The notes under the pieces are model-generated. The model made no database searches. It was not told the origin of the DNA and saw only the letters and a program-made list of their open reading frames with translations. Made by a program: the position numbers and the translations under genes. Below are positions 29,540-54,745 of a stretch of DNA of 59,466 nt, in pieces (the stretch's first letter is position 1; the number at the start of each line of letters is the position of its first letter). Origin of the DNA: a candidate division WOR-3 bacterium. Lineage in GTDB: Bacteria; Hydrothermota; Tepidihabitantia; Tepidihabitantales; Tepidihabitantaceae. The stretch spans positions 1-59,466 of the forward strand of contig JAPLUO010000197.1 of assembly GCA_026397595.1 (NCBI GenBank). The letters are read 5' to 3'.

Positions 29540-31770
29540 AGCTCGGGCAGCGGCGTGAACTCGACGACCTGATTCGCAGGCTGCGCCTGCACCTCGGGCG
29601 CGGCGGCATCTTCATTCTCGAAGTCAAGGATGACGCGACGCTGACGGTCGTACGCGAGCGCATCCGGGTCGAACTGGGCCATGTCGAATGGCAGGAACTC
29701 GGATTGAGTGACGACCCGATAGCCGAGGCGCTGCGGCTGTTGAGGTCGGGTGCGACACCCGACGCAGTTTTCACCGTGAACCTGCGCGGGCTAGATGAAA
29801 AGCGCGAGAAGCGCACACTCGTCAACCTGAACACCCGACGTGAGTATGTTCCTGAACGGAGTATCCTGCTGCTGCTCTGGTGCCGACCCGGACAGATGTC
29901 CCGCGTGTCCGATATCGCCAAGGACTTCTGGAGTTTCCGGACCGACGTGGGCCGGTTCAGCGTGATGCCGGACCACACTGCCGAGAAGATGCTCGGTCTA
30001 GCCGCAAGGGAGCTAGAGATTGCGGAGGCGCGAGCCCTGCTCGAACGGGTCGAGCGCGACAGTAAAGCCGCTCCATCAGTGCTGCCATCAGTCCATTTCC
30101 GGTTGGGCGACCTGTTGTCCGACGCCGGTCGGCCGGATGAGGCGCTCGATCACTATCTACCCGCGGTAGACGCGTACCGCAGGCTCGACGACAAGCGGAA
30201 CCTTGGCGCGGTCCTCGGCAACATCGGGAACATCTATAGTGCCAAGGGCGAACTCGACAAGGCTCTCAAGTTCCATGACGAGGCGCTGGCAATACACCGC
30301 GAAGGTGGGTATCAGCAGGGCGTGGCGGATGACCTCGGCAACACCGGGAACATCCACAGCGCCAAGGGCGAACCCGACAAGGCGCTCAAGTACTACGAGG
30401 AGGCGCTGGCGACACATCGCGAAATCGGGCATCAACAGAGCGTGGCGAGCGACCTCGGCAACATCGGGAACATCTACAGCAACAAGGGCGAACCCGACAA
30501 GGCGCTCAAGTACTACGAGGAGGCGCTGTCGATACATCGCGAAATTGGGTATCAGCAGGGCGTGGCGGACCAGCTCGGCAACATCGGTAACATCTATAAC
30601 GCCAAGGGTGAGCCCGACAAGGCGCTCAAGTACTACGAGGAAGCGCTGGCCATGGACCGCGAAATTGGGTATCAGCAGGGCGTGGCGAGCGACCTCGGCA
30701 ACATCGCGAACACCTACAGCAACAAGGGTGAAACCGACAAGGCGCTGAAGCACTTAGAGGAGGCGCTGGCCATAAGCCGCGAAATCGGATATCAGCAGGG
30801 CGTGGCGACCCATCTGGGCAACATTGGGCTCATCTACAGCGACAAGGGTGAACCCGACAAGGCGCTGAAGCACTTAGAGGAAGCGCTGGCGATTAACCGC
30901 GGAATTGGGCATCAGCAAGGCGTGGCGATCGACCTCGGCAACATCGGGAACATCTACAGCGACAAGGGCGAACCCGACAAGGCGCTCAAGTACTACGAGG
31001 AAGCGCTGGCGATTGACCGCAAAACTGGGTATCAGCAGGGCGTGGCGACCCAGCTTAGCAACATCGGGCTCATCTACATCGCCAAGGGCGAACCCGACGA
31101 GGCGCTCAAGTACCATGTGGAAGCGCTGGCGATGGCCCGCGAAATCGGGCATCAGCAAGGCGTGGCGGACCAGCTCGGTAGCATCGGGAACATCTACCGC
31201 GCCAAGGGCGAACTCGACCAGGCGCTCAAGCACTACGAGGAAGCGCTGGCGATAGACCGGGAGATCGGGTACCAGCAGGGCGTGGCGAGCTGCCTCGGCA
31301 ACATCGGGCTCATCAACATCGCCAAGGGCGAACCCGACAAGGCGCTCAGGTACCATGAAGAGTCGCTGGCGATTCACCGCGAAATCGGGTACCAGCAGGG
31401 CGTGGCGACCCAACTCGGCAACATCGGGCTCATCTACATCGCCAAGGGCGAACCCGACAAGGCGCTCAAGTACTATGAGGAAGCGCTGGCGATAGACCGG
31501 GAGATCGGGTACCAGCAGGGCGTGGCGACCCAGCTCGGCAACATCGGGCTCGTTTTGACGGACATGGGGAGGCTGGAGCAGGCCGTGCCGAAATTGGTGG
31601 AGGCGTTGGGCGTTTTTCGGGCCATCGGTTTGGCTGACGGCCCCGCGCAGGTGCTGACCGGGTTGGTCCGGTGTGGAGACAAGCTTGGCCGGGCACGGGT
31701 CCAGGAACTGCTCAAGGACGCGGGACTGGATGTCGAGGGCATTGCCAATCTGCTGAAGTTGGTGGACTAG
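29488..31770 (+). CDS. TPR-repeat protein (unassigned ~200-aa N-domain + 12-13 tandem 40-aa TPR units)
   Basis: Repeats of the form LGNIGNIYSxKGEPDKALKYYEEALAIxREIGYQQGVAxx. The start is ATG 29488 (or 29449), which overlaps the ATPase gene by 52 (91) nt. Confidence 0.8.
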   Translation: MAPSEPHLHSLAAKAQLELGQRRELDDLIRRLRLHLGRGGIFILEVKDDATLTVVRERIRVELGHVEWQELGLSDDPIAEALRLLRSGATPDAVFTVNLRGLDEKREKRTLVNLNTRREYVPERSILLLLWCRPGQMSRVSDIAKDFWSFRTDVGRFSVMPDHTAEKMLGLAARELEIAEARALLERVERDSKAAPSVLPSVHFRLGDLLSDAGRPDEALDHYLPAVDAYRRLDDKRNLGAVLGNIGNIYSAKGELDKALKFHDEALAIHREGGYQQGVADDLGNTGNIHSAKGEPDKALKYYEEALATHREIGHQQSVASDLGNIGNIYSNKGEPDKALKYYEEALSIHREIGYQQGVADQLGNIGNIYNAKGEPDKALKYYEEALAMDREIGYQQGVASDLGNIANTYSNKGETDKALKHLEEALAISREIGYQQGVATHLGNIGLIYSDKGEPDKALKHLEEALAINRGIGHQQGVAIDLGNIGNIYSDKGEPDKALKYYEEALAIDRKTGYQQGVATQLSNIGLIYIAKGEPDEALKYHVEALAMAREIGHQQGVADQLGSIGNIYRAKGELDQALKHYEEALAIDREIGYQQGVASCLGNIGLINIAKGEPDKALRYHEESLAIHREIGYQQGVATQLGNIGLIYIAKGEPDKALKYYEEALAIDREIGYQQGVATQLGNIGLVLTDMGRLEQAVPKLVEALGVFRAIGLADGPAQVLTGLVRCGDKLGRARVQELLKDAGLDVEGIANLLKLVD
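30190..31560 (+). repeat. 120-bp tandem coding repeats (TPR units) of high nucleotide identity
   Basis: Twelve consecutive units, each starting GGCAACATCGGG.... They generate antisense and off-frame shadow ORFs. Confidence 0.9.
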
Positions 31771-31969: not shown

Positions 31970-32190
31970 GAGTTGGGGGAAGAGTTGACCCAAGAGTTGG
32001 GGGAAGAGTTGACCCAAGAGTTGGGGGAAGAGTTGACCCAAGAGTTGGGGGAAGAGTTGGCCCAAGAGCTGGGGGAAGAGTCGGCCCAAGAGTTGGGGGA
32101 AGAGCTGACCCATGAGTTGGGGGAAGAGTTGGCCCAAGAGCTGGGGGAAGCGCTGGCCCAAGAGTTGGGGGAAGTCTTGGGGGAATGGGG
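31970..32190. repeat. 24-bp tandem repeat, ~8.5 units (GAGTTGGGGGAAGAGTTGACCCAA)
   Basis: Near-perfect units with an internal 12-bp sub-period (GAGTTGGGGGAA / GAGTTGACCCAA). It is open in frames on both strands, so coding status is unknown. Confidence 0.9.
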
Positions 32191-32401: not shown

Positions 32402-32701
32402 CAGCTTTCGAGTTAGCTTTCGAACAAGCCTTGAATGGTGCTCTGAAATGAGCTTTAAGTCCAGCTTTCAGAAGAGCTTTGTCGTGTGCTTTCACTGAAG
32501 CTATGAACTGAGCGATGGAAGAAGCGATGGCCTGAGCTTTGAGGCGAGCGATGCGCTAAGCGATTGAACGAGCTTTGGACTGAGCTTTGAGAGGTGCTTT
32601 GAAATGAGCTTTCGAGTGAGCTCTTGAATGAGCCTTCGATGGAGCTTTCCGGCGAGCTTTCCAGGGAGTTTCCGAGGGAGCTCTCAAGAGAGCTTTGGCG
32701 G
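32402..32701. repeat. 25 consecutive 12-bp units in perfect register, consensus RAGCTTTNNNNN
   Basis: For example GAGCTTTGAAAT GAGCTTTCGAGT GAGCTCTTGAAT GAGCCTTCGATG GAGCTTTCCGGC GAGCTTTCCAGG. There are no indels over 300 bp, and the region is visibly more AT-rich than its flanks. Confidence 0.85.
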
Positions 32702-32776: not shown

Positions 32777-33373
32777 GTGATTGGCAGGTTTCTGTTCCGC
32801 TCGCGCGGGGTCATTGGACTGGCCGCGTTCGTCGTGGTGTTCTGGCTGGCAAGGCCGACCGTCGGGTCGTGCTCTGCCGGCCTCGCGTTCGTGCTGGCCG
32901 GGTTGGCGGTGCGGTTCTGGGCTTCGGGCTACATCGGGATTGAGGGCCGGGCGCGGGAAATCGGCGCGAGTCGGAGGATTGCGAGCGGGCCGTATCGTCT
33001 GCTGAGACATCCACTATACATCGGGAACTTCCTGTTGGTGGCGGGGATGGTTATCGCGCTGCGGCCTCCTTTGTTGCTGATGGCTGTCGTACTGGTGGGG
33101 TTTTGCGTGGAGTATGCGGTCATCGTTGTTGAGGAAGAGCGGGATTTGTCACGAGGGCGAGGTCAGAGGCTAGAAGCTAGAAGGCAGAATGCAGAAGTGC
33201 TGAGGCAAGAAGCCAAAAGCCAAGAGCCAAAAGCCAAAACTGCGAATGGCGATGGGCGAGAGGCGAATGGCGAGCAGTTCACCGTTGGACGCGCCATGTG
33301 CGAGTGGCGGACGTGGGTGGTGACTGGCGTGGCGTTCGGGCTTGCGGTTGCCAAGGCGGCAGCGAGGAGTTAG
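32777..33373 (+). CDS. isoprenylcysteine carboxyl / phospholipid methyltransferase-family membrane protein
   Basis: GPYRLLRHPLYIGNFLLVAGMVIAL motif. The C-terminal third carries a heptamer-array-encoded insert (RGQRLEARRQNAEVLRQEAKSQEPKAKTANGDGREANGE). Confidence 0.7.
   Translation: MIGRFLFRSRGVIGLAAFVVVFWLARPTVGSCSAGLAFVLAGLAVRFWASGYIGIEGRAREIGASRRIASGPYRLLRHPLYIGNFLLVAGMVIALRPPLLLMAVVLVGFCVEYAVIVVEEERDLSRGRGQRLEARRQNAEVLRQEAKSQEPKAKTANGDGREANGEQFTVGRAMCEWRTWVVTGVAFGLAVAKAAARS
33162..33273. repeat. heptamer array, ~16 units, in frame inside the ICMT-like gene
   Basis: GCTAGAA x2, GCAGAA-type x2, AGCCAAA/AGCCAAG x4 and NGGCGA-type x5, read in 7-nt steps. Confidence 0.8.
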
Positions 33374-33450
33374 GAGTTAGGTGTTAGGAGTTAGGAGACA
33401 GGAAGCAGCGGAAGACTGCTAACCGCTAACTCTTAACTGCTAACTCTCCC
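33367..33450. repeat. inverted heptamer arrays (GAGTTAG-type then CTGCTAA-type) filling a convergent intergenic spacer; possible bidirectional terminator
   Basis: Twelve units in all. The two arms are about 80% complementary over about 30 nt. The TAG stop of the ICMT-like gene (33371-33373) lies in the first unit. Confidence 0.75.
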
Positions 33451-34863
33451 TCACCGCCGGGGCAGGATTTCGAACTCGGCGGTCAGGGAGGCGGAAATGG
33501 ACGGATGGGAGACATCGCATAAATCCTTGACGCGGCTGACCAGCAGGTAGTGGCCGGGTTTCAGGTCCATGGTGTGGATTCGCTCGACCGCGACGCCGGT
33601 CCGGCCGGGACCGGTGATGGAGCGGCTCGAGACTGGCAGGATTGCTTTCTCGCGGGTTTCGCGCTCGACCAGTTCGTAGGTCGCCTGTACGTCATGGCTG
33701 CCCGCCGAGTACGTGGCGAGGTGGTAGATCTCATAGAGGACATAGAATGACTGCCCGCTTCGCACGCGGGGCACGACCAGCGGGACTGCCCGAGCCCAGT
33801 CGAGGCGGCCGAACTGCGGGCTCTGGGGCGTCGAGTCAACCAGCGAGTAGAAAAGCACGTCAGATACCGGTTGGTCGCGCCGGGAGTAGTCTATGAGGTT
33901 CAGGTTCTGAACGCGGCGGGACGCGGTCTGGCCGCCGTCGGCAATGGCCGTGACGGTTACGGTGTAGATGTCGGCAGGCAGGTTGAAAACCTCGCGGCCT
34001 ACGGCGAACTCGACCACGGTCGTGTCCGGCGGCATCGCGCAGCTTACCCATGATTCCCGGTGAGCCGGCGTGCCCTTGTCCCGGGGAGCGAGGTCAATCG
34101 CGACGTTGATGAGAGGCTGGGTCTGGGACGGGAATGCGGCCATGATCGTCCGTAGCGGAATCCCGAACGCGAGTTCGACTTCGACCGAGTCGGCGTGCTG
34201 CCCGAGCCGGCCGAGCGATACCTCTAGTCCAAGGGGCCGGGCGTCCTTTGTGATGGCGGGCGCGGAACGACCCAGGTCCACCGGTTCAAGCGACGGCATG
34301 ACAGCGCTGCGGCCGTAGCGGCTTTCGCCGACCTGTTTGTACGCGGTGCCGGTGCGGACGAAGTCGAACTGGCGACCGAGGGAGTCGTATGACCAGATTT
34401 CCGCCGGGTTGACATAAATGCGGCTGGTTTCGGTCTCTATGGCGTGCGGTTCGTATTGCTCGCGGCGGGCCGGGCCGTAGCGGATGTAGGTGCGGACCCG
34501 GTCGTCGTTCAGCAGGTCGGTCGCGCCGAAGAAGGTCCGGGCCTGAAGCGCGCGCTGGTGGTAGAAGGCAGAGGGAGAAGGGAGGAGGGAGTCGGGAGTA
34601 GGGTTCAGGCCGGGAGGAAGATTGCGCCAGAACCAGTCAAGGTATTCGGCCCGGCCGCGGGCCGTGCTCGACGATGCGTATTGCTGGGCCGCGTTCGGGG
34701 CAATCGCTGCAAGCACGAGATAGTTGAGTTTGTCGTCGTCAGAGAGCGAGTCAGCGGGGGACAACTGTCTGACCTGGCCGCAGGAGGACAGCAGGAGAAT
34801 GCAGAATGCAGATTGCAGAATGCAGATTGCAGACTGCAGACCGCGGGGTTCCGGGTTAGTCAT
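33451..34863 (-). CDS. secreted lipoprotein, possibly GWxTD-domain-like
   Basis: The N-terminus RGLQSAICILQSAFCILLLSSCG is a signal peptide plus lipobox. AEYLDWFWRNLPP...RVRTYIRYGPA is weakly reminiscent of GWxTD proteins. Confidence 0.5.
   Translation of the reverse strand: MTNPEPRGLQSAICILQSAFCILLLSSCGQVRQLSPADSLSDDDKLNYLVLAAIAPNAAQQYASSSTARGRAEYLDWFWRNLPPGLNPTPDSLLPSPSAFYHQRALQARTFFGATDLLNDDRVRTYIRYGPARREQYEPHAIETETSRIYVNPAEIWSYDSLGRQFDFVRTGTAYKQVGESRYGRSAVMPSLEPVDLGRSAPAITKDARPLGLEVSLGRLGQHADSVEVELAFGIPLRTIMAAFPSQTQPLINVAIDLAPRDKGTPAHRESWVSCAMPPDTTVVEFAVGREVFNLPADIYTVTVTAIADGGQTASRRVQNLNLIDYSRRDQPVSDVLFYSLVDSTPQSPQFGRLDWARAVPLVVPRVRSGQSFYVLYEIYHLATYSAGSHDVQATYELVERETREKAILPVSSRSITGPGRTGVAVERIHTMDLKPGHYLLVSRVKDLCDVSHPSISASLTAEFEILPRR
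34791..34849. repeat. heptamer array (GCAGAAT/GCAGATT x6) encoding the signal-peptide core
   Basis: GCAGAAT GCAGATT GCAGAAT GCAGATT GCAGACT GCAGACC at 34801-34842. Confidence 0.85.
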
Positions 34864-34881: not shown

Positions 34882-36237
34882 TTACAGCATCGGAATCTTG
34901 ACGCCCTGGGTGCGGGCGACTTCGATGGCGTCGTCGTACCCGGCGTCGGCGTGGCGGGCGATTCCGGTGCCGGGGTCGTTCAAGAGCACACGCTTCAGCC
35001 TTTCGTCCATCTCAGTCGTGCCGTCGCAGACAATGACCTGGCCCGCGTGGATAGAGTAACCGATGCCGACGCCGCCACCGTGGTGAATGGAAACCCATGA
35101 CGCGCCCGAGGCGACGTTGAGCATGGCGTTGAGCAGGGGCCAGTCGGCAATCGCGTCAGAGCCGTCTTTCATTGCTTCGGTTTCACGGTTGGGTGACGCG
35201 ACTGAGCCGGTGTCAAGGTGGTCGCGGCCGATGACTATCGGCGCGCTGATTCGCCCCTCGCGCACGGCGAGGTTGAAGGCCAACCCGGCTTTGTCGCGTT
35301 CGCCAAACCCGAGCCAGCAGATGCGGCTGGGCAGGCCCTGGAACGGTATCTCGGCGCCGGCCCTCTTTATCCAGTTGACAAGTGCGGTGTTGTTCGGGAA
35401 GAGGTCGCAGACAAGCCGGTCGGTCTCGGCGATGTCTTTCGGGTCGCCGGAGAGCGCGGCCCAGCGGAACGGCCCCTTGCCCTGGCAGAACAGCGGACGG
35501 ATGTAGGCGGGAACGAAACCGGGGTACTTCCAAGTGCCGATTGACGATTGGCGATTGGCGATTGGCGAGGTGGGGTTGCGGATTTCGGACTCGGGGAGGA
35601 AGCCGCCCTCGACTGCTTTGCCGCGCAGGTTGTTGCCGTAGTCGAACGTTACCGCGCCCATTGACTGGAGCGCAAGCATCAGGCGGACGTGTTCGGCCAT
35701 CGTGCGAAAAGACGCCTGCTTGTATGCGGCCGGGTCCTTACGGCGGAGTTCGAGCGCCTGCTCGAACGACATGCCGCTCGGCACGTAGCCGTTCAGTTCG
35801 TCATGGGCCGAGGTCTGGTCGGTGAGCAGGTCGGGCACGACTTTGCGCTCGACCAGGCGCTTAAGCAGGTCAACGATGTTGCCGCACCAGGCGAAACTGG
35901 CCGCCTGCTTATGGCTCTTCGCGTCGAGGGCCCGGTCAATAGCCTTATCAAGGTCAGGGATACTCTCGTCGAGGTAGCGGGGCTTCTTGCTGGCCAGGCG
36001 TCGGGCCACGCGGGCCGGGTCGACCTCTGCGCCGAGATAGGTCGCGCCGGCCATGGTCGCGGCCAGGGGCTGGGCGCCGCTCATGCCGCCGAGCCCGCCG
36101 GACACGACCAGCCGGCCCGCGAGGTCAGGAGTCCCGAAGTGCTTCCTGCCCGCGGCAACAAACGTCTCGTGCGTTCCCTGCAGGATACCCTGGGTGCCGA
36201 TGTATATCCACGAGCCCGCGGTCATCTGGCCGTACAT
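34882..36237 (-). CDS. hutU: urocanate hydratase, C-terminal 451 aa (gene interrupted by in-frame TAG at 36259-36261)
   Basis: [43 protein letters not shown] and [18 protein letters not shown] motifs. Confidence 0.9.
35537..35592. repeat. heptamer array (GCCGATT GACGATT GGCGATT GGCGATT ...) in frame inside hutU
   Basis: It encodes ...[16 protein letters not shown]..., an insert just before the conserved [13 protein letters not shown]. Confidence 0.8.
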
Positions 36238-36258: not shown

Positions 36259-36609
36259 CTAGTCGAAGTAGGGCTTGGTGGCCCAGTGCGGGACGAGGTT
36301 GGAGTTGGCAATCAGCACCCGCGGGGCATGGGGCCATGTGCGAAAGACCGCGACCGGCTTGCCCGACTGGACGAGCAGGGTCTCGTCGTTCTCCAGTTCC
36401 TTCAGCGTGCGGACGATGGCGTGGAAGCAGTCCCAGTTGCGGGCGGCGCGGCCGGTGCCGCCGTACACAATGAGCTGCTCGGGATTCTCGGCGACCTCGG
36501 GGTCGAGGTTGTTCATCAGCATCCGCAGGGCCGCTTCCTGGTGCCAGCCCTTGCACTTGAGGTGCGGGCCGCGCGGCGCCTTGACGGGTTGATATTGAGT
36601 CTGGTTCAT
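36259..36609 (-). CDS. hutU: urocanate hydratase, N-terminal 116 aa
   Basis: [28 protein letters not shown] and LLVQSGKPV...ANSNLVPHW motifs. It is in the same frame as 34882..36237, separated by TAG plus 7 codons. Confidence 0.9.
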
Positions 36610-36858: not shown

Positions 36859-38619
36859 TTGATTCCAGTGCTGCTCCTGTGTCTGGCGGGCCAGCTTCAC
36901 ACCGGCGACACGCTTGAGGCGGTCAGGTTTGAAGGCATGCGCACGTTCAGCAGCCGAGCCCTGTCCCAACTGGTCACGGTGCGGGTCAGGCGGCCATCCA
37001 GCGAGAACCAACTCAACAACGATGCCGCGGCGCTGGAGTCGTTTTACCAAGACGAGGGATTTCACTCGGTTCGGGTCGAGAAGCAGATGACGCGGGGAAG
37101 GCGGCTGCCGGTTGTGACGTTCCACATTACCGAAGGGCCGCGCACGCGGGTGAGCGCGATTGCACTCACGGGCAACAGTACGGTCGGGACCGAGCAGTTG
37201 CTCAAGCAACTGACGGTGCGTCCGGGCCGCTTCTTTTCGCAGACCGCGCTTGACCAGAGCGTGGCGGCGCTGCGGACATACTACCTCAACTCCGGCTACC
37301 CGTTCGCGCAGGTACAAGATACGGTCACGCGCACCGACACCCTGGCCACGATTTCATTCAGTATCACCGAGGGCAGGCTGTGCCACGTGAGCGAGGTGCG
37401 GGTACGCGGTAACCGGACCGTCCGCACCAGAACCGTGCTGCGGGCCTCGGAAATCCGGCCGGGCGAGCAGTTCTCTCAGAAGCGGATGCAGGAGGCGCAA
37501 CGCCGGCTGTACGCGACCAAGCTGTTCTACCGGGTGATGTTCTTCGTCATAGCGGATAGCGGGCAGGAAACCAGGACCCGGGACCAGGGAGGACCGGACA
37601 GCGTGGCGGTCCGGTTCGACGTAGTCGAACAGGCGTACCGGGGCGTGTCCCTGGGCGCCGGGGTCGAGATTCCGCCCCGGCTGTTGGTATCGGCGGAGTG
37701 GGAGCACGACAACCTGTTCAACCGCGGCCACACGCTGGTCGTCGGCGGTGAGTTCAGCCCGACGCTTCCTTGGAGCTACCGGGTCGGGTTTGACGGTACA
37801 TACCGGGTGCCGTATCTGATTCTGACCAGGATTGACTTCCAGACTCATCCCTACTTCTCGTATGAGCGCCTGAACGACTTGATACGGCAGCGGGAGTATG
37901 GCATTGAAACCGGCATGACCCGGAGCCTTGTTCCCCAGTTCACAGTCGGCCTGACCAACCGTCTCCTGCTGCATTCCGACACTTTGTCCGGCATCACCAA
38001 TTCACTGGCGCTGAGCGGCCAGTATGATACGCGCGACGACATCTTTGACCCGGCTCAGGGCTTGTCTGTCCATGTGGTAGTCGAAGGCGCGGGCGGGCCA
38101 CTGTGGGGTGACAACGACTTCTACCGGCTGACCGGGGACGTGCGCTGGTATCAGCGGTTGGGGATAAGAGTTAGGGGTCAGGGTGCAGGGAGCGGGGATT
38201 TCGTGCTGGCAATGCGCGGCATGGCCGGGAGCGTCCGGCCCTACGGGCGCACCGTGGCAGTGCCGTACTACGAGGCGTTTACGCTCGGAGGCAGGAGTAC
38301 TCTGCGAGGGTATCCGGACCGGTCCATCGGGCCGGGCAGTTCGCCCGGGGACGAATACCGCTACGGTACGGCAGTGGTCAACGGCAACGTCGAGTTGCGC
38401 ACGCCTTACATACTGCGCTGGGTCGGGTTGGTCGGCTTCTTCGATGTCGGCGACGTGGGGTACGACTTCCGGATGCGAGTCTATGAATACGGCGCCGGGG
38501 CAGGCATACGGGTGCGGACCCCAATCGGGCCGGTCAGGCTGGACTGGGGTAAACGCCTGCGGAACCCGCCATCCGGGGACAAGGGCCGTTTCTACCTGGG
38601 GCTGCTCCATGCTTTCTAG
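36859..38619 (+). CDS. tamA: Omp85-family outer-membrane protein (TamA-like; BamA-like not excluded)
   Basis: 586 aa with a POTRA-like N-region and GGRSTLRGY. The barrel ends in ...YLGLLHAF. It lies immediately upstream of tamB, and its size fits the 3-POTRA TamA. Confidence 0.75.
   Translation: MIPVLLLCLAGQLHTGDTLEAVRFEGMRTFSSRALSQLVTVRVRRPSSENQLNNDAAALESFYQDEGFHSVRVEKQMTRGRRLPVVTFHITEGPRTRVSAIALTGNSTVGTEQLLKQLTVRPGRFFSQTALDQSVAALRTYYLNSGYPFAQVQDTVTRTDTLATISFSITEGRLCHVSEVRVRGNRTVRTRTVLRASEIRPGEQFSQKRMQEAQRRLYATKLFYRVMFFVIADSGQETRTRDQGGPDSVAVRFDVVEQAYRGVSLGAGVEIPPRLLVSAEWEHDNLFNRGHTLVVGGEFSPTLPWSYRVGFDGTYRVPYLILTRIDFQTHPYFSYERLNDLIRQREYGIETGMTRSLVPQFTVGLTNRLLLHSDTLSGITNSLALSGQYDTRDDIFDPAQGLSVHVVVEGAGGPLWGDNDFYRLTGDVRWYQRLGIRVRGQGAGSGDFVLAMRGMAGSVRPYGRTVAVPYYEAFTLGGRSTLRGYPDRSIGPGSSPGDEYRYGTAVVNGNVELRTPYILRWVGLVGFFDVGDVGYDFRMRVYEYGAGAGIRVRTPIGPVRLDWGKRLRNPPSGDKGRFYLGLLHAF
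38162..38198. repeat. short heptamer array in frame inside tamA
   Basis: ATAAGAG TTAGGGG TCAGGGT GCAGGGA GCGGGGA, encoding GIRVRGQGAGSGD. Confidence 0.6.
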
Positions 38620-40894
38620 CATTCGGCGGGTTCTGCTCGGAATCGCGATTGCGCTGGTCGCGCTGATTCAGGTCGTACTGGTACTGGCAGCACTGATACT
38701 GCTGGTGCCGTCGGTCGGCAGGTACGCGCTCAGCCAGGCGCTGACGCGGTTCGGGCCGCGGGTGGGGTTCGAGGTGAGCTTCGGACGGATTGAGGGAACC
38801 ATCACGCGGAGCATTACCCTTGCCGACCTGACGTTGAAGCTCGGGCCGGATTCCCTCAAGGTGAGGAAGCTGACGCTGACATACGATCCGTGGACATCAA
38901 TCACGCATCGGACCTTCTCTGCCTCGTTGGCAAGTGCGGTCGAACCGAGGTTCTTCATCAGCTCGGTGCGTCCCGTTTCAGGCCGAGGCGGGACCGGCCG
39001 AAGTCAGTATCCGCCGATTCGGATTGGGCAACTCCGTCTGTCCGGCGGGAGCGCGTTCATCGATACGGCGATGCGCCTCGATTCGGTTGACCTCATTCTG
39101 AATCTCGTCTCAACGCCGGAGCAGATGCAGGTGCAGTTGTCGGAAGTGAAGGCCCGCATGTACCAGGAACACATCTCGCTAGAGAACCTGAGCGGTGGGG
39201 CACGACTTACCCGGGACTCGCTGGTAATAACCGAACTTGTGGCGATGACCAAGAGCTCTTCGTTGCGCGCCGGGTTGAAGATGGCATTCCAGCCGAATAC
39301 TATCGTTGCCCAGCTTGAGAGCCTTTCCATTAGCCTGCAGGAGTTGGCCTCAGTAGCCCCTGTCGGACAGCGCACGCCGGTTCCGGGCCGACTGAGACTG
39401 AAGGGCACCGCGAAGCTGGAGAAGAACCAGGGCTCGGGAAACCTGCAGTTTGCGGCGGAAGGTCTCGCATGGCGTACCATCGAACTGCCGACAATCAGCG
39501 GCGAGCTGGTGCTGCAAGACTCGGTGGTACAAGTGACTATGGCCGGCGCAGATTCGGGACTGGGCAGCGCGGATGTGACCGGCAGGCTGGACCTGCGCAA
39601 GCTCGACTTCTCAGGCTCGGCGCAGTTGGTCGGCATCCGCGTGCGGCGACTCAGTTCGGGGTTGCCGGACGTGATGGTTGACGCCGACATCGAGGCCTCG
39701 GGCCGTGGGCTCGACTCGATTGCGGCGACCGTCAATGCGCGAATACCCGCCCTTGAAATCAACACGCTGAAGGTGGTCGGTTCCTACCGCCAGGCTGGCG
39801 GGCGGGTTGCGATTGAACAGCTTGAGCTGAGCGGGCCGGTCGGTGTCGTCTCCGGCCATGGCACCTGGCAGGGCAGCAGGTTCCAGGCTGAGGTACGGAT
39901 GGACACTTTCGACCTGGGGCTGCTTGCGAAGCTCGAATCGTTGCCGGTGCAAGGACGGGTTTCCGGCAACCTGAGCCTGGCCGGGACCGCGGAGACGCTG
40001 GATGTTGTGTCTGAACTGTCAGTCACCGACCTGAGCGTTGCCGGCGTCAATGCAGCGACAGCGCATGTTGGTCTTGCGGCCGCGATGGGGCGGGAGCTGT
40101 CCGGACAGGTGCGGGTCGGGGTTGCCAGGGCAAGCTACGGCGGATTCACGGTTGATTCCGTGCAGTTGACCTGGCAGGAGCAGCAGTTCGGGCTCGGGGT
40201 CTGGCAGCCCGGGGTCCAGGTCTCAGCCGAGGGCGCAGCCCGGCTGGCGCGAGACAGCGTTGTCATTGACTTCGCCACGCTCCGAATTGGTGCCAAGCCC
40301 GAAACGCTGACCATGCACGACGCGCTTCACCTCCGGCTGCGACAAAACTCACTCGACGTCCAACTCGCCGCACCGGATATCGCCGGCGGCGACGTGCGGG
40401 CGACGCTGGCCAGCGCGGCCGGGAAACCGGCCCGCCTCGACGTGGCCGTGAGTCGGCTGGACCTTGCCAGAGTCAAGGCACTGCTGGGCCTCGGGTTTGA
40501 TATGTCCGGCACAGTCAGTCTTGGCGTAACCGGCAGCGACACGTTCCTTCTGACCCTGGATGCCGACCGGCTGAGCATACCGTCTGCGGACGTCAATCTG
40601 AGCCGGGTCCAGGGCGCGGTCAGTGTCACCCGGACGCGCGCGGCCATTGATCATCTCTGGTTGGTGCACATGGACAGCAGCGCGGTGCCGGAGACAAGCG
40701 TGGTCGCCGGTTCAGTCGAATACCAGACCGAGGCCGGCTTCAAACTGGGTGCCGCTGACTTACGGGTGAGGCTGCGCAATCCCGGAGTCTGGGTGGTGGC
40801 TTTCCTGAAGCCGATCATGGAGTTGCGGCAGGGCACCATCTTCGGAGACCTGGCGCTGAAGGGTGGTCTGACTCGGCCGGTGTTCACCGGGTGA
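38609..40894 (+). CDS. tamB: TamB-like translocation/assembly module protein, N-terminal part
   Basis: ATG 38609 overlaps the tamA end. It has an N-terminal TM anchor (VLLGIAIALVALIQVVLVLAALILLV) and a long repetitive beta-rich region. Confidence 0.7.
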   Translation: MLSSIRRVLLGIAIALVALIQVVLVLAALILLVPSVGRYALSQALTRFGPRVGFEVSFGRIEGTITRSITLADLTLKLGPDSLKVRKLTLTYDPWTSITHRTFSASLASAVEPRFFISSVRPVSGRGGTGRSQYPPIRIGQLRLSGGSAFIDTAMRLDSVDLILNLVSTPEQMQVQLSEVKARMYQEHISLENLSGGARLTRDSLVITELVAMTKSSSLRAGLKMAFQPNTIVAQLESLSISLQELASVAPVGQRTPVPGRLRLKGTAKLEKNQGSGNLQFAAEGLAWRTIELPTISGELVLQDSVVQVTMAGADSGLGSADVTGRLDLRKLDFSGSAQLVGIRVRRLSSGLPDVMVDADIEASGRGLDSIAATVNARIPALEINTLKVVGSYRQAGGRVAIEQLELSGPVGVVSGHGTWQGSRFQAEVRMDTFDLGLLAKLESLPVQGRVSGNLSLAGTAETLDVVSELSVTDLSVAGVNAATAHVGLAAAMGRELSGQVRVGVARASYGGFTVDSVQLTWQEQQFGLGVWQPGVQVSAEGAARLARDSVVIDFATLRIGAKPETLTMHDALHLRLRQNSLDVQLAAPDIAGGDVRATLASAAGKPARLDVAVSRLDLARVKALLGLGFDMSGTVSLGVTGSDTFLLTLDADRLSIPSADVNLSRVQGAVSVTRTRAAIDHLWLVHMDSSAVPETSVVAGSVEYQTEAGFKLGAADLRVRLRNPGVWVVAFLKPIMELRQGTIFGDLALKGGLTRPVFTG

Positions 40895-41970
40895 ACGCCG
40901 AACTGGTATTCGACCGCAGCCGTATCAGTATTGAGAAGCTGACCGGCAGGTCTGACCACGGGAACACGCTGGTCACGGGTTTCGTCGACATCGGCGAGAA
41001 GTGGCAGGTTGACTCGCTCCGGTTCCACGGCGATTTCAGCGGTACCACAATCAACCCACAGCCGGAAATCTATGGCATAATCGGGGGCAGCCTTGACCTT
41101 GACTGGGCCATGGGCCGGCCGTACTCGATTTCCGGAACGGTTGACATCGAGGAAGCGCTGGTGGCATTCGCGTTCGGTCAGTCGGCCGGCGTCGCCCGGG
41201 GGCCCGATACCACATTCGTCTTCGATGTCCGGGTGAGGGCCGAGCGCGACATCTGGCTGCGCAGCCAGCGAGCGGGCATCGATTTCGGCGGGGCGGACAT
41301 TGAGTTCGGCGGGGACATGACCATCCGCAAGACCATGACCGACATGCTCTACACCGGCGAACTGGTCTCGCGGCAGGGCACGGTCTACTACCTCGACCAG
41401 GCCCTGCGTGTTACCAGCGGTTCGGTGAAGTTCGAGAACATCAGCACCGTGAACCCGGACCTTGATATCATCGCCGAGTTGCCAATCCGGGCGGGTCCGG
41501 GTGATACGAAGGTGCCGGACAAGATCGTCCTGACCCTGACCGGCACCCTGGAGAAGCCGGCTTTCGGGTTCACGTCCGAGCCGCCCATCTGGGACGAGAC
41601 GGCGATTGCCTCGTACCTCAGTCTGAACGTGACCCCGGGCCAGCTTGACCAGCAAGGCGCGGTCACCAAGCTGCTGTCCCAACGCCTGCTCAACTACTTT
41701 CAGTTGCAGGTTTCCAAGCGTGCGCGCGGGTTCGTCAGTCTCGACTACCTCGAGTTTGAGAGCGGGCTGCTCGGGGACCGGGAGACCAAGGTCACGGTAG
41801 GCAAGTACGTGGGCAGGAACCTGTACGTGACGTACACGCAGAACTTCACCGGCGACCTCAACCCGGCATTCCGGGTCGAATACTACGTTAACCGTAAGAA
41901 CGAAATCCTCGCCGAGGGCTCGGCCAGCGGCCCGTTCTCGCTTCGATACCAGTTCAAACTCCGGTACTGA
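40891..41970 (+). CDS. tamB: TamB-like protein, C-terminal part (DUF490-type end)
   Basis: GTGA overlap with the previous ORF. The end ...VTVGKYVGRNLYVTYTQNF...FSLRYQFKLRY is typical of TamB C-termini. Confidence 0.7.
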   Translation: MNAELVFDRSRISIEKLTGRSDHGNTLVTGFVDIGEKWQVDSLRFHGDFSGTTINPQPEIYGIIGGSLDLDWAMGRPYSISGTVDIEEALVAFAFGQSAGVARGPDTTFVFDVRVRAERDIWLRSQRAGIDFGGADIEFGGDMTIRKTMTDMLYTGELVSRQGTVYYLDQALRVTSGSVKFENISTVNPDLDIIAELPIRAGPGDTKVPDKIVLTLTGTLEKPAFGFTSEPPIWDETAIASYLSLNVTPGQLDQQGAVTKLLSQRLLNYFQLQVSKRARGFVSLDYLEFESGLLGDRETKVTVGKYVGRNLYVTYTQNFTGDLNPAFRVEYYVNRKNEILAEGSASGPFSLRYQFKLRY

Positions 41971-41973
41971 CGC

Positions 41974-44100
41974 ATGGCGCGTGACGCATTGCGCATGACG
42001 CCAGCCGCCGCCGGCCTGAAGCGTGAAGCGTCGGGCGTAGAGCGCTACTGCAACGTCGCGATACCCCATACCCGGCTGCACGAGCTGACCTACGAGTTCG
42101 AGCCGGAACGCTTCCTCGAACTTGCGCCCGGCGCGTGCGTGCAGGTCCGCCTGCGTGGGAAGAAAGCCAAAGGTCTCGTGCTCGAAGTCCTGGCCCGCAG
42201 CCCGGTGCCAAAGACACTGCCGGTCGAGAAGCTGGTCGAGCCGCGGTTGGTCTCGGAGGAGCTTCTGCGCCTGCTGCGCTGGGTCGGCGCATACTACTTT
42301 GGCCGGATGGGCGCAGTACTCGGCATGGCCCTGCCGCGCGGCATCTGCGGCCACGGACTCAGAAGAGGGGCGAGGGGCGGTGAACGAGCGCTTAGTGGAA
42401 GACGGCCGGTTGTTGTCTCCGACCTTCATCTTTCATCCTTCATCTTCCCTCCTTCTTTCTCCGTGAACGTCCATACCGGTTCGGGCTCGCAAGAAGACGT
42501 CGTGGCCGGCTTCGTCGGTGCGGGGCTTGAGCGCGGGACGGTGATAGTCTTGATGCCGGAGTCCGAGACCGGCGTATGGGCGGGCACGCTACGGGCGAGG
42601 CTGGGAATCGAGCCGGTTCTTTACCACGGCGACCGGAAGGCGTCGGAACGGAAGAGCGTCTGGCGCGAGGTGCGCTCAAGCGAGCGCATGTTGGTTCTTG
42701 GTGTTCGTTCGGCCGTGTTCGCTCCGGTGCCGGACCTTGCCGGCGTCGTTGTGATAGATGAGCACGACAAGGTCTTCAAGGAAGAGCGGCATCCGCGGTT
42801 CAATGCCCGGGACGTGGCTATTGCCCGGGCCCGACTCGCCGACTGCCCGGTGCTGCTCTGCGACCCGACCCCGTCGGCCGAGACCTGGCTGAACCTGCGC
42901 AACGGACAGTACCAGATGGTGCAAAGTCCCGCCGCAAAGTCACAAGGGGAAAGTCCCAAGTCTGAAGTGGAAGGTACAAAGTCTGAAGTGCAAAGTCCCG
43001 CCGCAAAGTCACAAGGGGAAAGTCCCAAGTCTGAAGAGGAAAGTCCCGAATCACAAGTGGAAAGTGCCAAGTCCCGAGGGGAAAGCACCAAGTCCAACTT
43101 GTCCATTTCCCCTTTCCACTTCGTCATTTCCGGCTCCCCGCCTGATACCCTCGTCGTTGACATGCGCAAGCATCGGGGCGAGGTGCTCGCGCCGGTGCTG
43201 GTGAATGAGCTGAAAGAAGCCCGCGCTGCCGGCGAGTCATCGGTGTTGTATATCAACCGCCGGGGACTAAGCCGATACGTCGCGTGCCGTGACTGCGGGA
43301 GTCCACTCCTGTGTACGGACTGTGGAGTCTCGCTCGTGCTCTATTCCGGTGGCAACCTCTGTTGCCGCTACTGCGGCAAGACCAGCACCGCACCGGAGAC
43401 GTGCCCAGCATGCGGCAGTCCTGACTTCCGGCTCAAGGCGCCGGGCATCGAGATGGCCGCGCGCGAAGTGAGCCGGCTGTTGCCGGACGCAAATGTCTTG
43501 ACGGTGCTCACCGAATCCGTTCATCGTTCTTCCCCTGAACCCGGGTCGGTGGTCGTCGGCACGCGTGCGCTGTTCGGGGTTCACTGGCCGGAGCGGGTGA
43601 GGGTAGTTGCTGCCCTGTCGGTTGACGACGACCTGTGCCTGCCAGATTTCCGGGCAAGGGAGCGGACGTTCCAGGTGCTCTCAGAACTGTCCCGGCGCGC
43701 GGCAGCGCATGGGGCTACGCTTGTGCTCCAGACCCGTCGGCCCGACGACCCGGCGGTGCAGGCCGCGACCGCGGGAGATGTGGCGCGTTTCCTTGACCAG
43801 GAATTGAAACTGAGGGAGGAACTGGAGTTCCCGCCCTATCGGCGGCTTGTGCTCATCGAGCTGAGCGCTGCGAGCGAGTCCAAAGCAGCGAGGCACGGAG
43901 AAATGCTGTGTCGAAAACTGGGGCGGGTTCAGGGTGTGGAAGCGATGGGCCCGGTACCGGTGCGCGGAAGAACGAATACCGTGCAGGTTCTCGTCAAGGT
44001 CGCCCGCAACCTCAGGCTGGACCGATTAGTGACCCTGAAACAGCTTGAGTCCGACGGCGTCAGGGCCAGGGTCGACGTGGACCCTTTGGAGACAGTGTAG
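41974..44100 (+). CDS. priA: primosomal protein N' (PriA) with degenerate helicase motifs and two repeat-encoded inserts
   Basis: CNVAIPHTRLHELTYEF N-terminus, a Cys-rich zinc region (CRDCGSPLLCTDCGVSL...CRYCG...CPACGS) and LYINRRG. Walker A reads HTGSGSQEDV and motif II reads IDEHD. Confidence 0.85.
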   Translation: MARDALRMTPAAAGLKREASGVERYCNVAIPHTRLHELTYEFEPERFLELAPGACVQVRLRGKKAKGLVLEVLARSPVPKTLPVEKLVEPRLVSEELLRLLRWVGAYYFGRMGAVLGMALPRGICGHGLRRGARGGERALSGRRPVVVSDLHLSSFIFPPSFSVNVHTGSGSQEDVVAGFVGAGLERGTVIVLMPESETGVWAGTLRARLGIEPVLYHGDRKASERKSVWREVRSSERMLVLGVRSAVFAPVPDLAGVVVIDEHDKVFKEERHPRFNARDVAIARARLADCPVLLCDPTPSAETWLNLRNGQYQMVQSPAAKSQGESPKSEVEGTKSEVQSPAAKSQGESPKSEEESPESQVESAKSRGESTKSNLSISPFHFVISGSPPDTLVVDMRKHRGEVLAPVLVNELKEARAAGESSVLYINRRGLSRYVACRDCGSPLLCTDCGVSLVLYSGGNLCCRYCGKTSTAPETCPACGSPDFRLKAPGIEMAAREVSRLLPDANVLTVLTESVHRSSPEPGSVVVGTRALFGVHWPERVRVVAALSVDDDLCLPDFRARERTFQVLSELSRRAAAHGATLVLQTRRPDDPAVQAATAGDVARFLDQELKLREELEFPPYRRLVLIELSAASESKAARHGEMLCRKLGRVQGVEAMGPVPVRGRTNTVQVLVKVARNLRLDRLVTLKQLESDGVRARVDVDPLETV
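42358..42465. repeat. composite heptamer array in frame in priA (purine-rich half then complementary pyrimidine-rich half)
   Basis: ...GGGCGAG GGGCGGT GAACGAG... is followed by CCTTCAT CTTTCAT CCTTCAT CTTCCCT CCTTCTT. It encodes ...RGARGGERALSG...SDLHLSSFIFPPSFS, directly N-terminal to the Walker A position. Confidence 0.75.
42919..43132. repeat. repeat block in frame in priA: 69-bp unit x ~2.6 built from AAAGTC-type heptamers, then a pyrimidine-rich inverted tail
   Basis: The copy at 42919-42987 is nearly identical over its first ~50 nt to the copy at 42988-43056. It encodes VQSPAAKSQGESPKSE... twice. The tail CCATTTCCCCTTTCCACTTCGTCATTTCC is the complement of the word GGGGAAATGG... seen at about 45065 and about 54844. 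Confidence 0.85.
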
Positions 44101-44216
44101 AGGACGAAGCCAGAAGCTAGATGCTAGAAGTCAGAAGTCCGGGCAGTCCTAACTGCTAACTTACTAACTGCTAACTTACTAACCGCTACCTTACTAACTC
44201 GCGGCGAAGCCGCGTC
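44101..44216. repeat. intergenic heptamer/15-mer array filling the priA / 44217 convergent spacer
   Basis: CAGAAGC TAGATGC TAGAAGT CAGAAGT, then (CTAACTGCTAACTTA) x3. It is flanked by the short inverted termini GTAGAGGACG / CGTCCTAC, which contain both stop codons. Confidence 0.8.
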
Positions 44217-52708: not shown

Positions 52709-54745
52709 TTAGTTGCTTGCATGTCCTTGCCGGGATGAACCGTGCGTCACGACGAACTTGTGCCGGGAGGCACCGGTCGCGGTCTCAAGTTCCGCCAGAT
52801 AGACACCGGGTGCGAGCCCGGCTGCCTCGGTGTCCACCGTATACTGCGTCGGTTTGCCTCCGGTCGGGTAACATTTTACCGTCCGACCCGCAATGTCAAT
52901 GATTTTCAAGTCTCGGCTGTCGGCCGGAAGCGTGACGTGCAGTACGCGGTAGGCCGGATTGGGCCATACCGATGTCGATCCGGAGGGCGGAAGACGAAAG
53001 GCGAAAGGCGAAACGGCGCCGGCAGGGGGTGAGCGGTACGACACGGCATCAAGGTCGAGGCCGGCTCTTGGGTCAGAGGGTGAGCCGGTGCTGTCACAGA
53101 CGATGCGCAGGTAGCAGGCGGAGTCGAGGCCGGCCGAGCCCAGGTCGAATGAGGCGGTGCCGCTAGCGTGGCCGATCCTGTTCCACAAACCGGTCCAGTC
53201 GTTGGCGGCGTACAGCCAGTAGCCGTCCGCGACGCTATCACCGTCAAAGACCGTAATGTCGTTGCCCGGCAGATTCCTCATTGTCCTATCGCGGCCCGCA
53301 CTGAGGCAGACATCGCCTTTCCGGCCCAGCGAGAAGTAGCGGCCGTCGGGCGCGCCCAGTGCGTAGATGGAGGTCGTGGGCATGACCTTGGTCGAGTCCC
53401 CGTTGTTCAGCCAGACCATTTCTTCGATGTAGACTTGTCCTGACGTGTCGGGCGCGAGGTCGAAATCAGCAGTCGCCCTGCCTCCGGCCGGCACGACCAC
53501 ACCGGCGACCGTCTTGGGCAGAAAACCCTGCGCGTGGGCGGTCAGCGTGTAGGTGCCGGGCTGAAGCAGGTGGTCGTAGTCGCCGAGTGCATGGTCGGTG
53601 TAGCAGTCCCAGCGCACCGGGCTGTCAACCGATATGCGGGCGAAGAGCGGCGCGCCGGTCAACGAGTCGCGGACCACGCCGCTTGCTCCCTGGCGGCAGG
53701 CGCGAATCATGCCGAGCAGTGCCCGGCGGTTGGCAACGCAAATCGAGTCTATCTGGGCCTGCTCAGATTGATGCGGCCTCTGTGTCTCAATCGTGTAGGC
53801 GAAGTTGCCGAAGAGGCCGAATCCGGCATCCTGGCACGATCCGTCCACCTCGTACCAGCCATAGCCGTTGATGGGCTCAAGCAGTGTCGTGCCCGAGCCG
53901 TAGGTCGAGTCCGCGTACTGTTGGGCCAGAGCCATGATAGAGCCGGAGTCGGGCGGGTCGGCCGGGTGGTTGTCCCAAAGGTAGTTGACATACGACGAGG
54001 CCGAGTGGTACGCGAATTCCATGCAGATGTTGTTGTCCATGCTGTGCTGCCGGATGAAGCGCGTCTCCGGCTGCGAGAATGGACTCGGGCTCCCGCCCAT
54101 TCCGCTCCAGCGATAGCCGTAGTCGCGGTTCAGGTCAACGCCTTTGGCGTTGGAACGGTCACTCGCGATGAAGCCGTCCACGTTGACAATCGGGATGACC
54201 CAGAGCTCGGTTGAGTCCACCAGGTTGTGGATTGAGGTGCTGGTGTCGTAGCTTGCCAGTACGTATTGCAGGAACGAGAGCGTGATTTCGGTCGCAATCT
54301 TCTCATCGCCGTGATGCGGGCCGAGGACCCGGAACTCGGGTTCGGCTTCTTCAGTGAGCGAGTTGTCGGTCACCCGCATCGCCAGAATCAGGCTGTCGTT
54401 GGCACTCCGGCCGATGGTGTCGAGCCGGCAGATGAGCGGGTAGGCCTGGACCAGGCTGACCATGGTGCTGCAGACTTGCGCGTAGGTCCGGTAGTCGAAC
54501 TGCGCCGAGTCGGTCCATGCCTGGTAGTCCGGGATGGTGACTATCGGTGAATAGCCGAGGGCGCGGAGCCGGACAAGGTCGGCGTCAGTGACAAGCACGC
54601 GGGCGGAGCCGTCGGCGACGCTGATGATGGTCAGGTCGTGCGGCAACTGATATACGGCAGCGTGGCTGGGGAGCTGGACTTCGGCCACGCGCCGGGCCTG
54701 CCCGGGCGCGCCGAGAAGCAGCAGGGCGGCGACGATGAGATTCAC
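52709..54745 (-). CDS. M14-family zinc carboxypeptidase with T9SS C-terminal sorting domain
   Basis: GPHHGDEKIATE (HxxE) and the M14 core. The C-terminal ~80 aa (VWPNPAYRVLHV...IIDIAGRTV...LAPGVYLAEL) resembles a type-A Por sorting domain. Confidence 0.75.
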   Translation of the reverse strand: MNLIVAALLLLGAPGQARRVAEVQLPSHAAVYQLPHDLTIISVADGSARVLVTDADLVRLRALGYSPIVTIPDYQAWTDSAQFDYRTYAQVCSTMVSLVQAYPLICRLDTIGRSANDSLILAMRVTDNSLTEEAEPEFRVLGPHHGDEKIATEITLSFLQYVLASYDTSTSIHNLVDSTELWVIPIVNVDGFIASDRSNAKGVDLNRDYGYRWSGMGGSPSPFSQPETRFIRQHSMDNNICMEFAYHSASSYVNYLWDNHPADPPDSGSIMALAQQYADSTYGSGTTLLEPINGYGWYEVDGSCQDAGFGLFGNFAYTIETQRPHQSEQAQIDSICVANRRALLGMIRACRQGASGVVRDSLTGAPLFARISVDSPVRWDCYTDHALGDYDHLLQPGTYTLTAHAQGFLPKTVAGVVVPAGGRATADFDLAPDTSGQVYIEEMVWLNNGDSTKVMPTTSIYALGAPDGRYFSLGRKGDVCLSAGRDRTMRNLPGNDITVFDGDSVADGYWLYAANDWTGLWNRIGHASGTASFDLGSAGLDSACYLRIVCDSTGSPSDPRAGLDLDAVSYRSPPAGAVSPFAFRLPPSGSTSVWPNPAYRVLHVTLPADSRDLKIIDIAGRTVKCYPTGGKPTQYTVDTEAAGLAPGVYLAELETATGASRHKFVVTHGSSRQGHASN
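52986..53020. repeat. short heptamer array in frame in the peptidase
   Basis: GACGAAA GGCGAAA GGCGAAA CGGCGCC, encoding ...SPFAFRLPP... on the minus strand just before the sorting domain. Confidence 0.6.

Follow-up and report, generated by a model that had tools for sequence, protein, structure and literature searches.

Introduction

How can a repeat built from words of 7 nucleotides (nt) be accommodated in frame within an essential gene? This question is raised by a block at positions 42919-43140 in priA, the gene of primosomal protein N′ (PriA), on contig JAPLUO010000197.1 of a candidate division WOR-3 bacterium (GenBank assembly GCA_026397595.1). The whole stretch of DNA analyzed, positions 1 to 59,466 of this contig with a length of 59,466 nt, is called the window in the following. 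An earlier note, made from the sequence alone, had described the block as a 69-bp unit itself built from heptamers and had taken it for a recent in-frame expansion. We analyzed the repeat structure of the block, its position in the protein, its occurrence in independent sequencing data and its variation among relatives. We consider it likely that the block is a real, length-hypervariable and disordered coding minisatellite, which arose from heptamer arrays in the hinge that joins the two RecA-like lobes of PriA and which is probably near-neutral.

Repeat structure of the priA block

The gene and the parts of the block are listed below.

41974-44100, forward strand: priA open reading frame (ORF), 708 amino acids, with a PriA fold but without the winged-helix (WH) domain and with degenerate helicase motifs I, III, V and VI
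42919-42945, forward strand: leader copy 1 (GTGCAA AGTCCCGCCGCAAAGTCACAA, VQSPAAKSQ), a degenerate unit with 6 extra nt
42946-42987, forward strand: two 21-nt units coding GESPKSE and VEGTKSE, found by the repeat and 17-mer searches
42988-43036, forward strand: leader copy 2 and first unit, an exact 49-nt duplicate of 42919-42967 at an offset of 69 nt, whose junction unitig is exact in X1-X5 (see below)
43036-43098, forward strand: three more 21-nt units coding EESPESQ, VESAKSR and GESTKSN, whose orthologues in L082/P0003, the closest relative, are its last three units
43099-43140, forward strand: pyrimidine-rich tail coding LSISPFH FVISGSP, about two diverged inverted unit copies

Tandem Repeats Finder reported a period of 69 with 2.1 copies and 88% matches for 42919-43065 and, nested in it, a period-21 array of 7.2 copies for 42937-43094. 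The repeat search gave 88% identity between 42919-42987 and 42988-43056 and a family of seven members with successive spacings of 21, 21, 27, 21, 21 and 21 nt. Self-identity of 42919-43132 was 0.45 at lag 7 and 0.59 at both lag 21 and lag 69, compared with 0.256 ± 0.03 in mononucleotide shuffles, whose maxima of 0.34-0.37 never reached the observed values. The 17-mer GGGGAAAGTCCCAAGTC occurs five times with at most three mismatches, always within the priA block, where 0.07 occurrences are expected.

The heptamer register of the block consists of AAGnnnn words such as AAGTCAC, AAGGGGA, AAGTCCC and AAGTCTG, but the coherent unit is 21 nt long (GGGGAAAGTNCCAAGTCNSAA); it comprises three AAGnnnn heptamers and codes for the seven residues G-E-S-x-K-S-Q/E. 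The resulting linker heptads, (G/V/E)-E-S-x-K-S-(Q/E), are lineage-specific. The 69-nt period is the sum of a 27-nt leader and two 21-nt units. A 7-nt substructure, as proposed before, is thus visible in the AAG triplet every 7 nt and in the self-identity at lag 7, while the dominant sub-period is 21 nt.

The near-identity over about the first 50 nt of the 69-nt copies was seen correctly, as 42919-42967 and 42988-43036 are identical over 49 nt. All eight differences between the copies are confined to the last 20 nt, where the number of mismatches is on par with that between any two units. Because, with random placement, the chance of finding all eight changes within the last 20 of 69 sites is about (20/69)^8, i.e. 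~5e-5, the copies do not represent an evenly diverged 69-nt tandem duplication. The ~2.6 copies with a partial third copy did not hold up: after the two 69-nt copies, only further 21-nt units follow (62% identity at a 21-nt offset). The start of the leader (GTGCAAAGTCCC) and that of the unit (GTGGAAAGTCCC) differ by 1 nt. The translations quoted in the earlier note are right and in the priA frame; the number of extra residues is about 62-64 rather than ~70. Its two-step growth from 7 to 69 nt captured the heptamer origin but missed the intermediate level of 21 nt; the 69-nt step reflects a special, segmental event and not the regular unit.

Host protein and insertion point

The ORF was assigned to PriA by TIGR00595 (305.4 bits; cutoff 230) and by PF17764, the 3′ DNA-binding domain (3′BD; 47.7 bits, residues 28-121), while PriA_C scored just below its cutoff (25.8 bits). 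The PriA of Klebsiella pneumoniae (PDB 4nl4) was matched with an E value of 1e-51. An AlphaFold (AF2) model from 81 homologues reached a pLDDT of 84 and a pTM of 0.82, and the top nine PDB matches of this model in Foldseek were all PriA, the best being 8fak_H (E 6e-46, TMq 0.73).

In the phmmer alignment, query residues 140-317 correspond to K. pneumoniae residues 214-391, i.e. lobe 1 with its end just past motif III, and query residues 394-706 correspond to 406-746, i.e. lobe 2 with the Cys-rich region, followed by the C-terminal domain (CTD). The insertion point is therefore at query residues 317-394, which correspond to residues 391-406 of K. pneumoniae PriA, and the inter-lobe connector comprises 77 residues compared with ~15 in K. 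pneumoniae PriA. VVDM (392-396) forms the first strand of lobe 2. The block had been placed before VVDM, which is correct, and outside the helicase core, which is not, since it lies within the core between RecA-like lobes 1 and 2. The disordered part predicted by the model is:

42949-43110, forward strand: codons of residues 326-379, with AlphaFold pLDDT below 50 (326-328, 330-379) and no secondary structure

An intein, an intron or a domain insertion was ruled out, as the insert has neither a Pfam match nor a predicted structure and consists wholly of repeat. A long antisense ORF at 42621-43256 was set aside as a by-product of the G+C-rich repeat sequence.

Linker length among relatives

A search of 5.8 billion proteins yielded a PriA clade of more than 90 members from freshwater, sediment and soil metagenomes, with the nearest named PriAs belonging to candidate division WOR-3 (~42-50% identity). 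The gene order Omp85-TamB-PriA-TPR protein is conserved among relatives. A scan of contigs with the clade alignment returned, among the matches listed, only distant PriAs with 27-41% identity and no sister genomes. A protein search with the repeat peptide gave no matches, PriAs included, and is uninformative because the query is of low complexity.

Linker length was taken as the stretch equivalent to query residues 300-400, which is 101 residues in the window and 38-39 in canonical PriAs. Clade members lacking the tail have 35-38 residues in 28 of 55 cases (37 in 23 of those), all among the more distant sequences, and one sub-clade has 45. Alleles with the SPF tail (type B) have linkers of 57, 64, 71, 78, 85, 92, 99 or 113 residues: 35 of the 38 fit 57 + 7n residues, with 1-9 units, and the exceptions are the window (101 = 57 + 6 × 7 + 2), P0012 (87) and P0045 (58). 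An apparent difference of 28 residues between P0011 and P0121 results from start-codon choice only.

At the DNA level, twelve other loci (eleven distinct alleles) carry the 21-nt units in perfect register, from one unit (L085, L120) to nine (L084). In L084, three consecutive units are identical, which points to recent expansion, and four of the nine share this sequence. Compared with the closest relative P0003/L082 (leader and five units), the window is longer by exactly 48 nt, namely the second leader and first unit. The exact 49-nt duplicate and the differences of whole 21-nt units among relatives bear out a recent in-frame expansion. The units are arranged head to tail and in frame, with a copy number that varies among relatives, as is characteristic of coding minisatellites.

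P0012 (76% identical) likewise has a second VQSPAAK leader within its array, but spaced differently. As this was a separate event, leader duplication occurred more than once. In L088/P0009, the same PriA site holds a perfect (TTCATCG) array of 4.9 copies coding SSFIVHRSSFIV; the hinge is thus a recurrent home for different heptamer arrays. Upstream in the window's priA lies a further stretch of this type:

42423-42455, forward strand: second heptamer-derived stretch, called insert 1 in the earlier note (TTCATCY units; SDLHLSSFIFPPS), kept in the near clade

Constraint on DNA and peptide

Mean entropy over 58 units was 0.78, 0.67 and 0.77 for the three codon positions. Purifying selection on the peptide would be expected to give an excess of variation at third positions; no such excess is present, and the variation among units follows the heptamer phase and not the codons. 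Within the unit, positions 2, 10 and 19 vary, and the AAG triplet is retained at each 7-nt step. As the unit can be read through in each of the three sense frames, the only visible selection is for a total length of 0 mod 3. In these sequences, the pattern points to slippage at the DNA level with selection only for an open frame, and it is consistent with a DNA repeat that evolves in concert and whose peptide is tolerated.

The duplication in independent sequencing data

As independent data, Logan k=31 unitigs from public runs were used, with runs X1-X5 representing four samples from two studies. A unitig covering 42938-43017, which includes the unique end of copy 1 as well as the junction of copies 1 and 2, was found with 0 mismatches in X2, X3, X4 and X5; in X1, the junction unitig covers 42945-43017. 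Depths of flank, junction, shared 49-mer and second flank were 17.1 : 12.7 : 22.6 : 12.8 in X3 and 5.2 : 6.1 : 12.2 : 5.4 in X5, and noisier in X2 (14.4 : 5.5 : 9.5 : 15.9). In X1, X3, X4 and X5, the depth of the unitig of the shared 49-mer was about double that of the flanks. The depths in X3 and X5 (~1:1:2:1) fit two copies in essentially the whole population. X1-X5 match the window, and X7 contains two related alleles with other unit numbers, which come from strains of ~91-92% identity.

Two other sites of the contig deviate from these data. The urocanase gene (minus strand) has an in-frame stop at 36259-36261 where its orthologues code for Glu; at position 36261, X4 and X5 have C instead of A at full depth, and the stop is thus private to the assembly, as an error or a rare variant. 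A frameshift at 40885/40886 divides TamB into two ORFs (38183-40894 and 40891-41970); here, 61 nt are missing that encode approximately RVRISQARLGVPVIGATFD in relatives. An X4 contig carries these 61 nt and loose ends in X3 agree with it, which makes the deletion private to the assembly as well. With two such defects, the assembly is not flawless, and checking the repeat for an artefact therefore mattered.

Inverted tail and hairpin

The pyrimidine-rich tail had been called inverted, and this was confirmed: the arms 43006-43030 and 43097-43121 are 72% complementary, and 43055-64 and 43112-21 are complementary in 10 of 10 positions. Part of the tail folds into a hairpin:

43070-43120, forward strand: imperfect hairpin of last unit and tail, centred on AAGTC-C-AACTT (-27.4 kcal/mol, z -3.5)

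The tail consensus (D/N)(F/L)xISPFxxVIS is present in every tail-bearing allele. The hairpin as a conserved RNA or DNA structure was rejected: the arms are kept in 11 alleles, but the pairs are near-invariant, with a covariation term of +0.91, and the relatives' folds are no better than those of shuffles (z -0.1 to -1.5); the support ends at the inverted repeat. Across the whole window, Rfam gave no match at gathering score.

Degenerate helicase motifs

In the clade alignment, the Walker A lysine of canonical PriAs is replaced (by R, Q, G or others) in all 93 members, SAT of motif III is changed to DPT or similar, GTQM of motif V to GTRA, and QVAGRAGR of motif VI to ELSRRAAA, each likewise in 93 of 93. 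The PriA of the window has HTGSGSQE at Walker A, DPT and ELSRRAAA, with motif II partly kept (DEH); the motifs of an active superfamily 2 (SF2) helicase (Walker A GxGKT, SAT and QxxGRxGR) were not found in its sequence. The WH block of ~100 residues present in canonical PriAs (P0094-P0100) is missing from P0001-P0093. The 3′BD, the eight Zn cysteines and the CTD are conserved in the clade; C438, C441, C447, C450, C464, C467, C477 and C480, forming four CxxC pairs in lobe 2, are invariant in 81 sequences.

By its sequences, the whole PriA clade looks like a pseudohelicase. PriA of Deinococcus radiodurans, with similarly degenerate motifs, has been shown to be a pseudohelicase and has kept its binding to DNA and DnaB (PMC4504706); the motif loss in the present clade appears to be independent of it. 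If the PriA of this clade likewise did not cycle ATP, the lobes would not need to close, and a long floppy connector would be cheap. The pseudohelicase-like state thereby probably makes the hinge permissive for the insert.

Heptamer arrays in the window and in relatives

The priA array is not gene-specific but one instance of a genome-wide habit of heptamer arrays. The window contains 19 period-7, 10 period-14 and 5 period-21 arrays, compared with 1.35, 0.3 and 0 in dinucleotide shuffles, including sites at 33165-33447, 34563-34840, 35538-35568, 44106-44199, 52986-53018, 54909-55019 and 56162-56245. Both hallmarks of heptanucleotide simple sequence repeats (SSRs) were found, namely an excess of arrays and a 7-nt periodicity (lag 7 of 0.45 vs 0.256 ± 0.031). 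In the loci of relatives, arrays occur about once per kb, in genes as well as between them. Array words are shared, with 11 of 171 pairs within one mismatch compared with 4.9 ± 2.0 expected (P ~0.0075).

Other genes of the window contain such arrays in frame. A Kelch/NIDO/T9SS-CTD protein (54752-57139, minus strand; Pfam) has three heptamer-derived stretches: GSSFIAHRSS in its Por_Secre_tail domain, which comes from (TTCATCG)n and thus from the same array as the PriA linker of L088, as well as HSSLLPPPASL and SIRHTAYGIQH...SSSFILQPSSF. Urocanase has a heptamer-derived loop (35538-35568; 3293-3350 in L081) at the same site in close relatives but with differing sequence, one version being SPLASRFSPLAS; the arrays are of the CCAATCG type in the window and of the TCGCCTC/GCAATCC type in L081. 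The C-terminal tail of a PEMT-family protein is made of arrays.

At the 3′ end of this PEMT-family gene, L081 has a 49-nt (7 × 7) higher-order repeat in three copies (803-932), and the orthologous region is wholly different in the window and L082. This repeat is a second case in which a hierarchy of repeats has grown from heptamers. At the 3′ end of a gene of the window (33360-33450), (AGGAGTT)n faces its inverted complement (-34.9 kcal/mol, z -3.8), and downstream of priA (44101-44216) GAAGCTA and CTAACTG arrays are followed by a GC hairpin at ~44200-44214. Such intergenic array pairs at gene 3′ ends may act as terminators.

Repeats of other periods also occur in the window. A 24-nt array of 8.5 copies (GAGTTGGGGGAAGAGTTGACCCAA; 91% matches) lies at 31970-32174 downstream of a TPR_12 gene, with 12/24-nt arrays nearby at 32523-32696. 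The 120-nt (40-residue) repeats at 30213-31548 and 58697-59466 are TPR_12 repeats of two large TPR proteins, i.e. ordinary protein repeats; the TPR_12 protein at 29449-31767 scored 505 bits in Pfam.

Proposed origin and alternative explanations

The preferred explanation starts from heptanucleotide (AAGnnnn) tandem arrays, which are abundant in the genome. As 21 is the least common multiple (lcm) of 7 and 3, only changes by three heptamers preserve the frame within the gene, and the array would thus grow and shrink in steps of 21 nt via replication slippage or unequal recombination. In a recent event, the 27-nt leader together with the first unit (48-49 nt) would have been copied to a position 69 nt downstream, probably by misalignment of the leader start GTGCAAAGTCCC with the unit start GTGGAAAGTCCC. 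The 3′ tail would be an old inverted unit copy that is now fixed, and the peptide would be tolerated as a near-neutral flexible spacer. Slippage, neutrality and the link between pseudohelicase state and tolerance are what we infer from these observations.

Several points weigh against this explanation. An allele without the 49-nt duplicate adds no new 31-mers, and k=31 unitigs are therefore blind to minor copy-number variants. A function could underlie the hydrophilic composition and the conservation of the hydrophobic tail (FAISPFPLVIS). A 45-nt part of the hairpin recurs with ~91% identity at another metagenome locus, and pure slippage in situ fails there. Finally, the 69-nt event has no unique reconstruction, as a duplication of 48 nt could account for it as well as one of 69 nt after which a 21-nt unit was lost.

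The main alternative is that a small mobile or copy-pasted palindromic element, comparable to Rickettsia palindromic elements or the small dispersed repeats of cyanobacteria, was inserted in frame, delivering an array with its inverted array to priA, where it later expanded. The priA module is indeed an inverted repeat, and contigs of X1, X2, X4, X6 and X7 match 43077/82/90-43121 over 32-45 nt with 2-4 mismatches and unrelated flanks; at the second locus in X7, these flanks are inverted heptamer arrays (CAAGGACAAAGC ... GCTTTGTCCTTAG). The tail 19-mer CCATTTCCCCTTTCCACTT also occurs exactly in the reverse complement of the L081 PEMT 3′ array, the 11 shared pairs of array words go beyond composition, and several intergenic sites have hairpins made of inverted heptamer arrays, such as the one at 33360-33450. 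Nevertheless, we regard such an insertion as unlikely: neither defined termini nor a target-site duplication were seen, all 38 type-B alleles share one orthologous site with length shifting by internal 21-nt units, and a second copy was not found within the 59-kb window. A metagenome scan with the hairpin core (17 specified bases) gave 120 matches, of which 6 were priA loci and 114 chance matches, with no other gene. Somewhat less doubtful is a broader version, in which the uncultured freshwater lineage has a distinct repeat-seeding process, either self-propagating palindromic heptamer-array micro-elements or an idiosyncrasy of polymerase or repair, which would place arrays of a limited vocabulary across the genome, also in frame at permissive loops of conserved enzymes, where they then change in 21-nt quanta; the priA linker would be one copy of a new coding-tolerant class of elements and more than a product of local slippage.

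The linker could also be an adaptive tether, which would set how far the N-terminal fork-binding half can reach from the C-terminal Zn/CTD half or would diversify to evade a PriA binder encoded by phages. Its length differs strongly between relatives that share 70-90% identity elsewhere, and its composition is uniformly hydrophilic and disorder-promoting, with a conserved hydrophobic tail; adaptation nonetheless appears quite improbable, given that third codon positions are no more variable across units than the others, that similar heptamer-derived stretches occur in unrelated proteins, and that the same site in other relatives holds quite different arrays (SSFIVHRSSFIV, STPVATRSTPSV) or none (37 residues, out-groups). 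Collapse or expansion of the repeat by the assembler, which the earlier note had named as a possible refutation, might be suspected from the two private defects of the same contig (stop at 36259-36261 and 61-nt deletion at 40885/6), but the exact unique junction unitigs in X1-X5, the two-copy depth of the shared 49-mer in X1, X3, X4 and X5 and the homologous arrays in relatives leave hardly any room for it. Just as little can be said for a phase-variation (contingency) locus, in which frameshifts through gain or loss of single heptamers would turn priA off and on. A 7-nt periodicity is present here, and in Haemophilus phase variation is driven by heptanucleotide SSRs. Against this, the heptamers are degenerate (lag 7 of 0.45 vs lag 21 of 0.59), no frameshifted allele was present among the DNA loci fetched for relatives or the unitigs, and priA is a housekeeping gene.

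Relation to known systems and implications

Like bacterial intragenic minisatellites, i.e. variable number tandem repeats (VNTRs), the priA block consists of in-frame tandem units of varying copy number, with homogenization at the DNA level and a disordered product of low complexity. Unlike these, it resides in a core replication-restart gene and not in that of a surface protein, its unit is a triplet of heptamers, and its own inverted copy follows. Rickettsia palindromic elements are in-frame palindromic insertions at permissive surface sites of housekeeping proteins, present as discrete dispersed copies of 100-150 bp with consensus ends. The priA block resembles them as palindromic DNA tolerated in frame in a housekeeping protein; it differs in that it has no defined ends, varies by internal units and recurs elsewhere only as a 40-45-nt segment.

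Heptamer SSRs are over-represented in some bacteria (Nostoc, Xanthomonas), yet are reported to be under-represented in coding regions (PMC4692102). The arrays of the window share with the cyanobacterial STRRs and the GGGAATC-type repeats of Xanthomonas and Nostoc (PMC4692102) the strong genome-wide excess of 7-nt arrays, the extensive variation in length and sequence between close relatives and the inverted arrangements that can form stem-loops. In contrast to those, they are often in frame in genes (priA, urocanase, Kelch/T9SS protein) and occur in an uncultured lineage related to WOR-3. Regarding the protein, the window PriA shares with canonical PriA (Escherichia coli, K. pneumoniae; PDB 4nl4, 6dgd, 8fak) the 3′BD, two RecA-like lobes, the Cys-rich Zn region in lobe 2, the CTD and the fold (TMq 0.73), but it has no WH domain, its helicase motifs are degenerate, and its linker comprises 77 instead of ~15 residues. 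With D. radiodurans PriA (PMC4504706) it has in common the retained PriA architecture with non-conserved helicase motifs; it differs in belonging to another phylum, in its repeat linker, which is not described there, and in that its loss of activity is predicted from sequence.

The mechanism is ordinary and of a known kind, while the setting is unusual, with an essential gene, a quantization from 7 to 21 nt and heptamers invading coding sequences genome-wide. It illustrates how a repeat with a unit that is not a multiple of three colonizes an essential gene: the frame constraint converts a 7-nt SSR into a 21-nt, seven-residue repeat, i.e. lcm-quantized evolution. The inter-lobe hinge of a PriA pseudohelicase is thereby marked as structurally permissive. 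The density of heptamer arrays, about one per kb with many in coding sequence, affects gene calling, assembly and alignment-based phylogeny of these metagenome-assembled genomes (MAGs), and the priA array could be used as a marker of strains. If the arrays were dispersed elements, they would represent a new bacterial analogue of in-frame palindromic elements.

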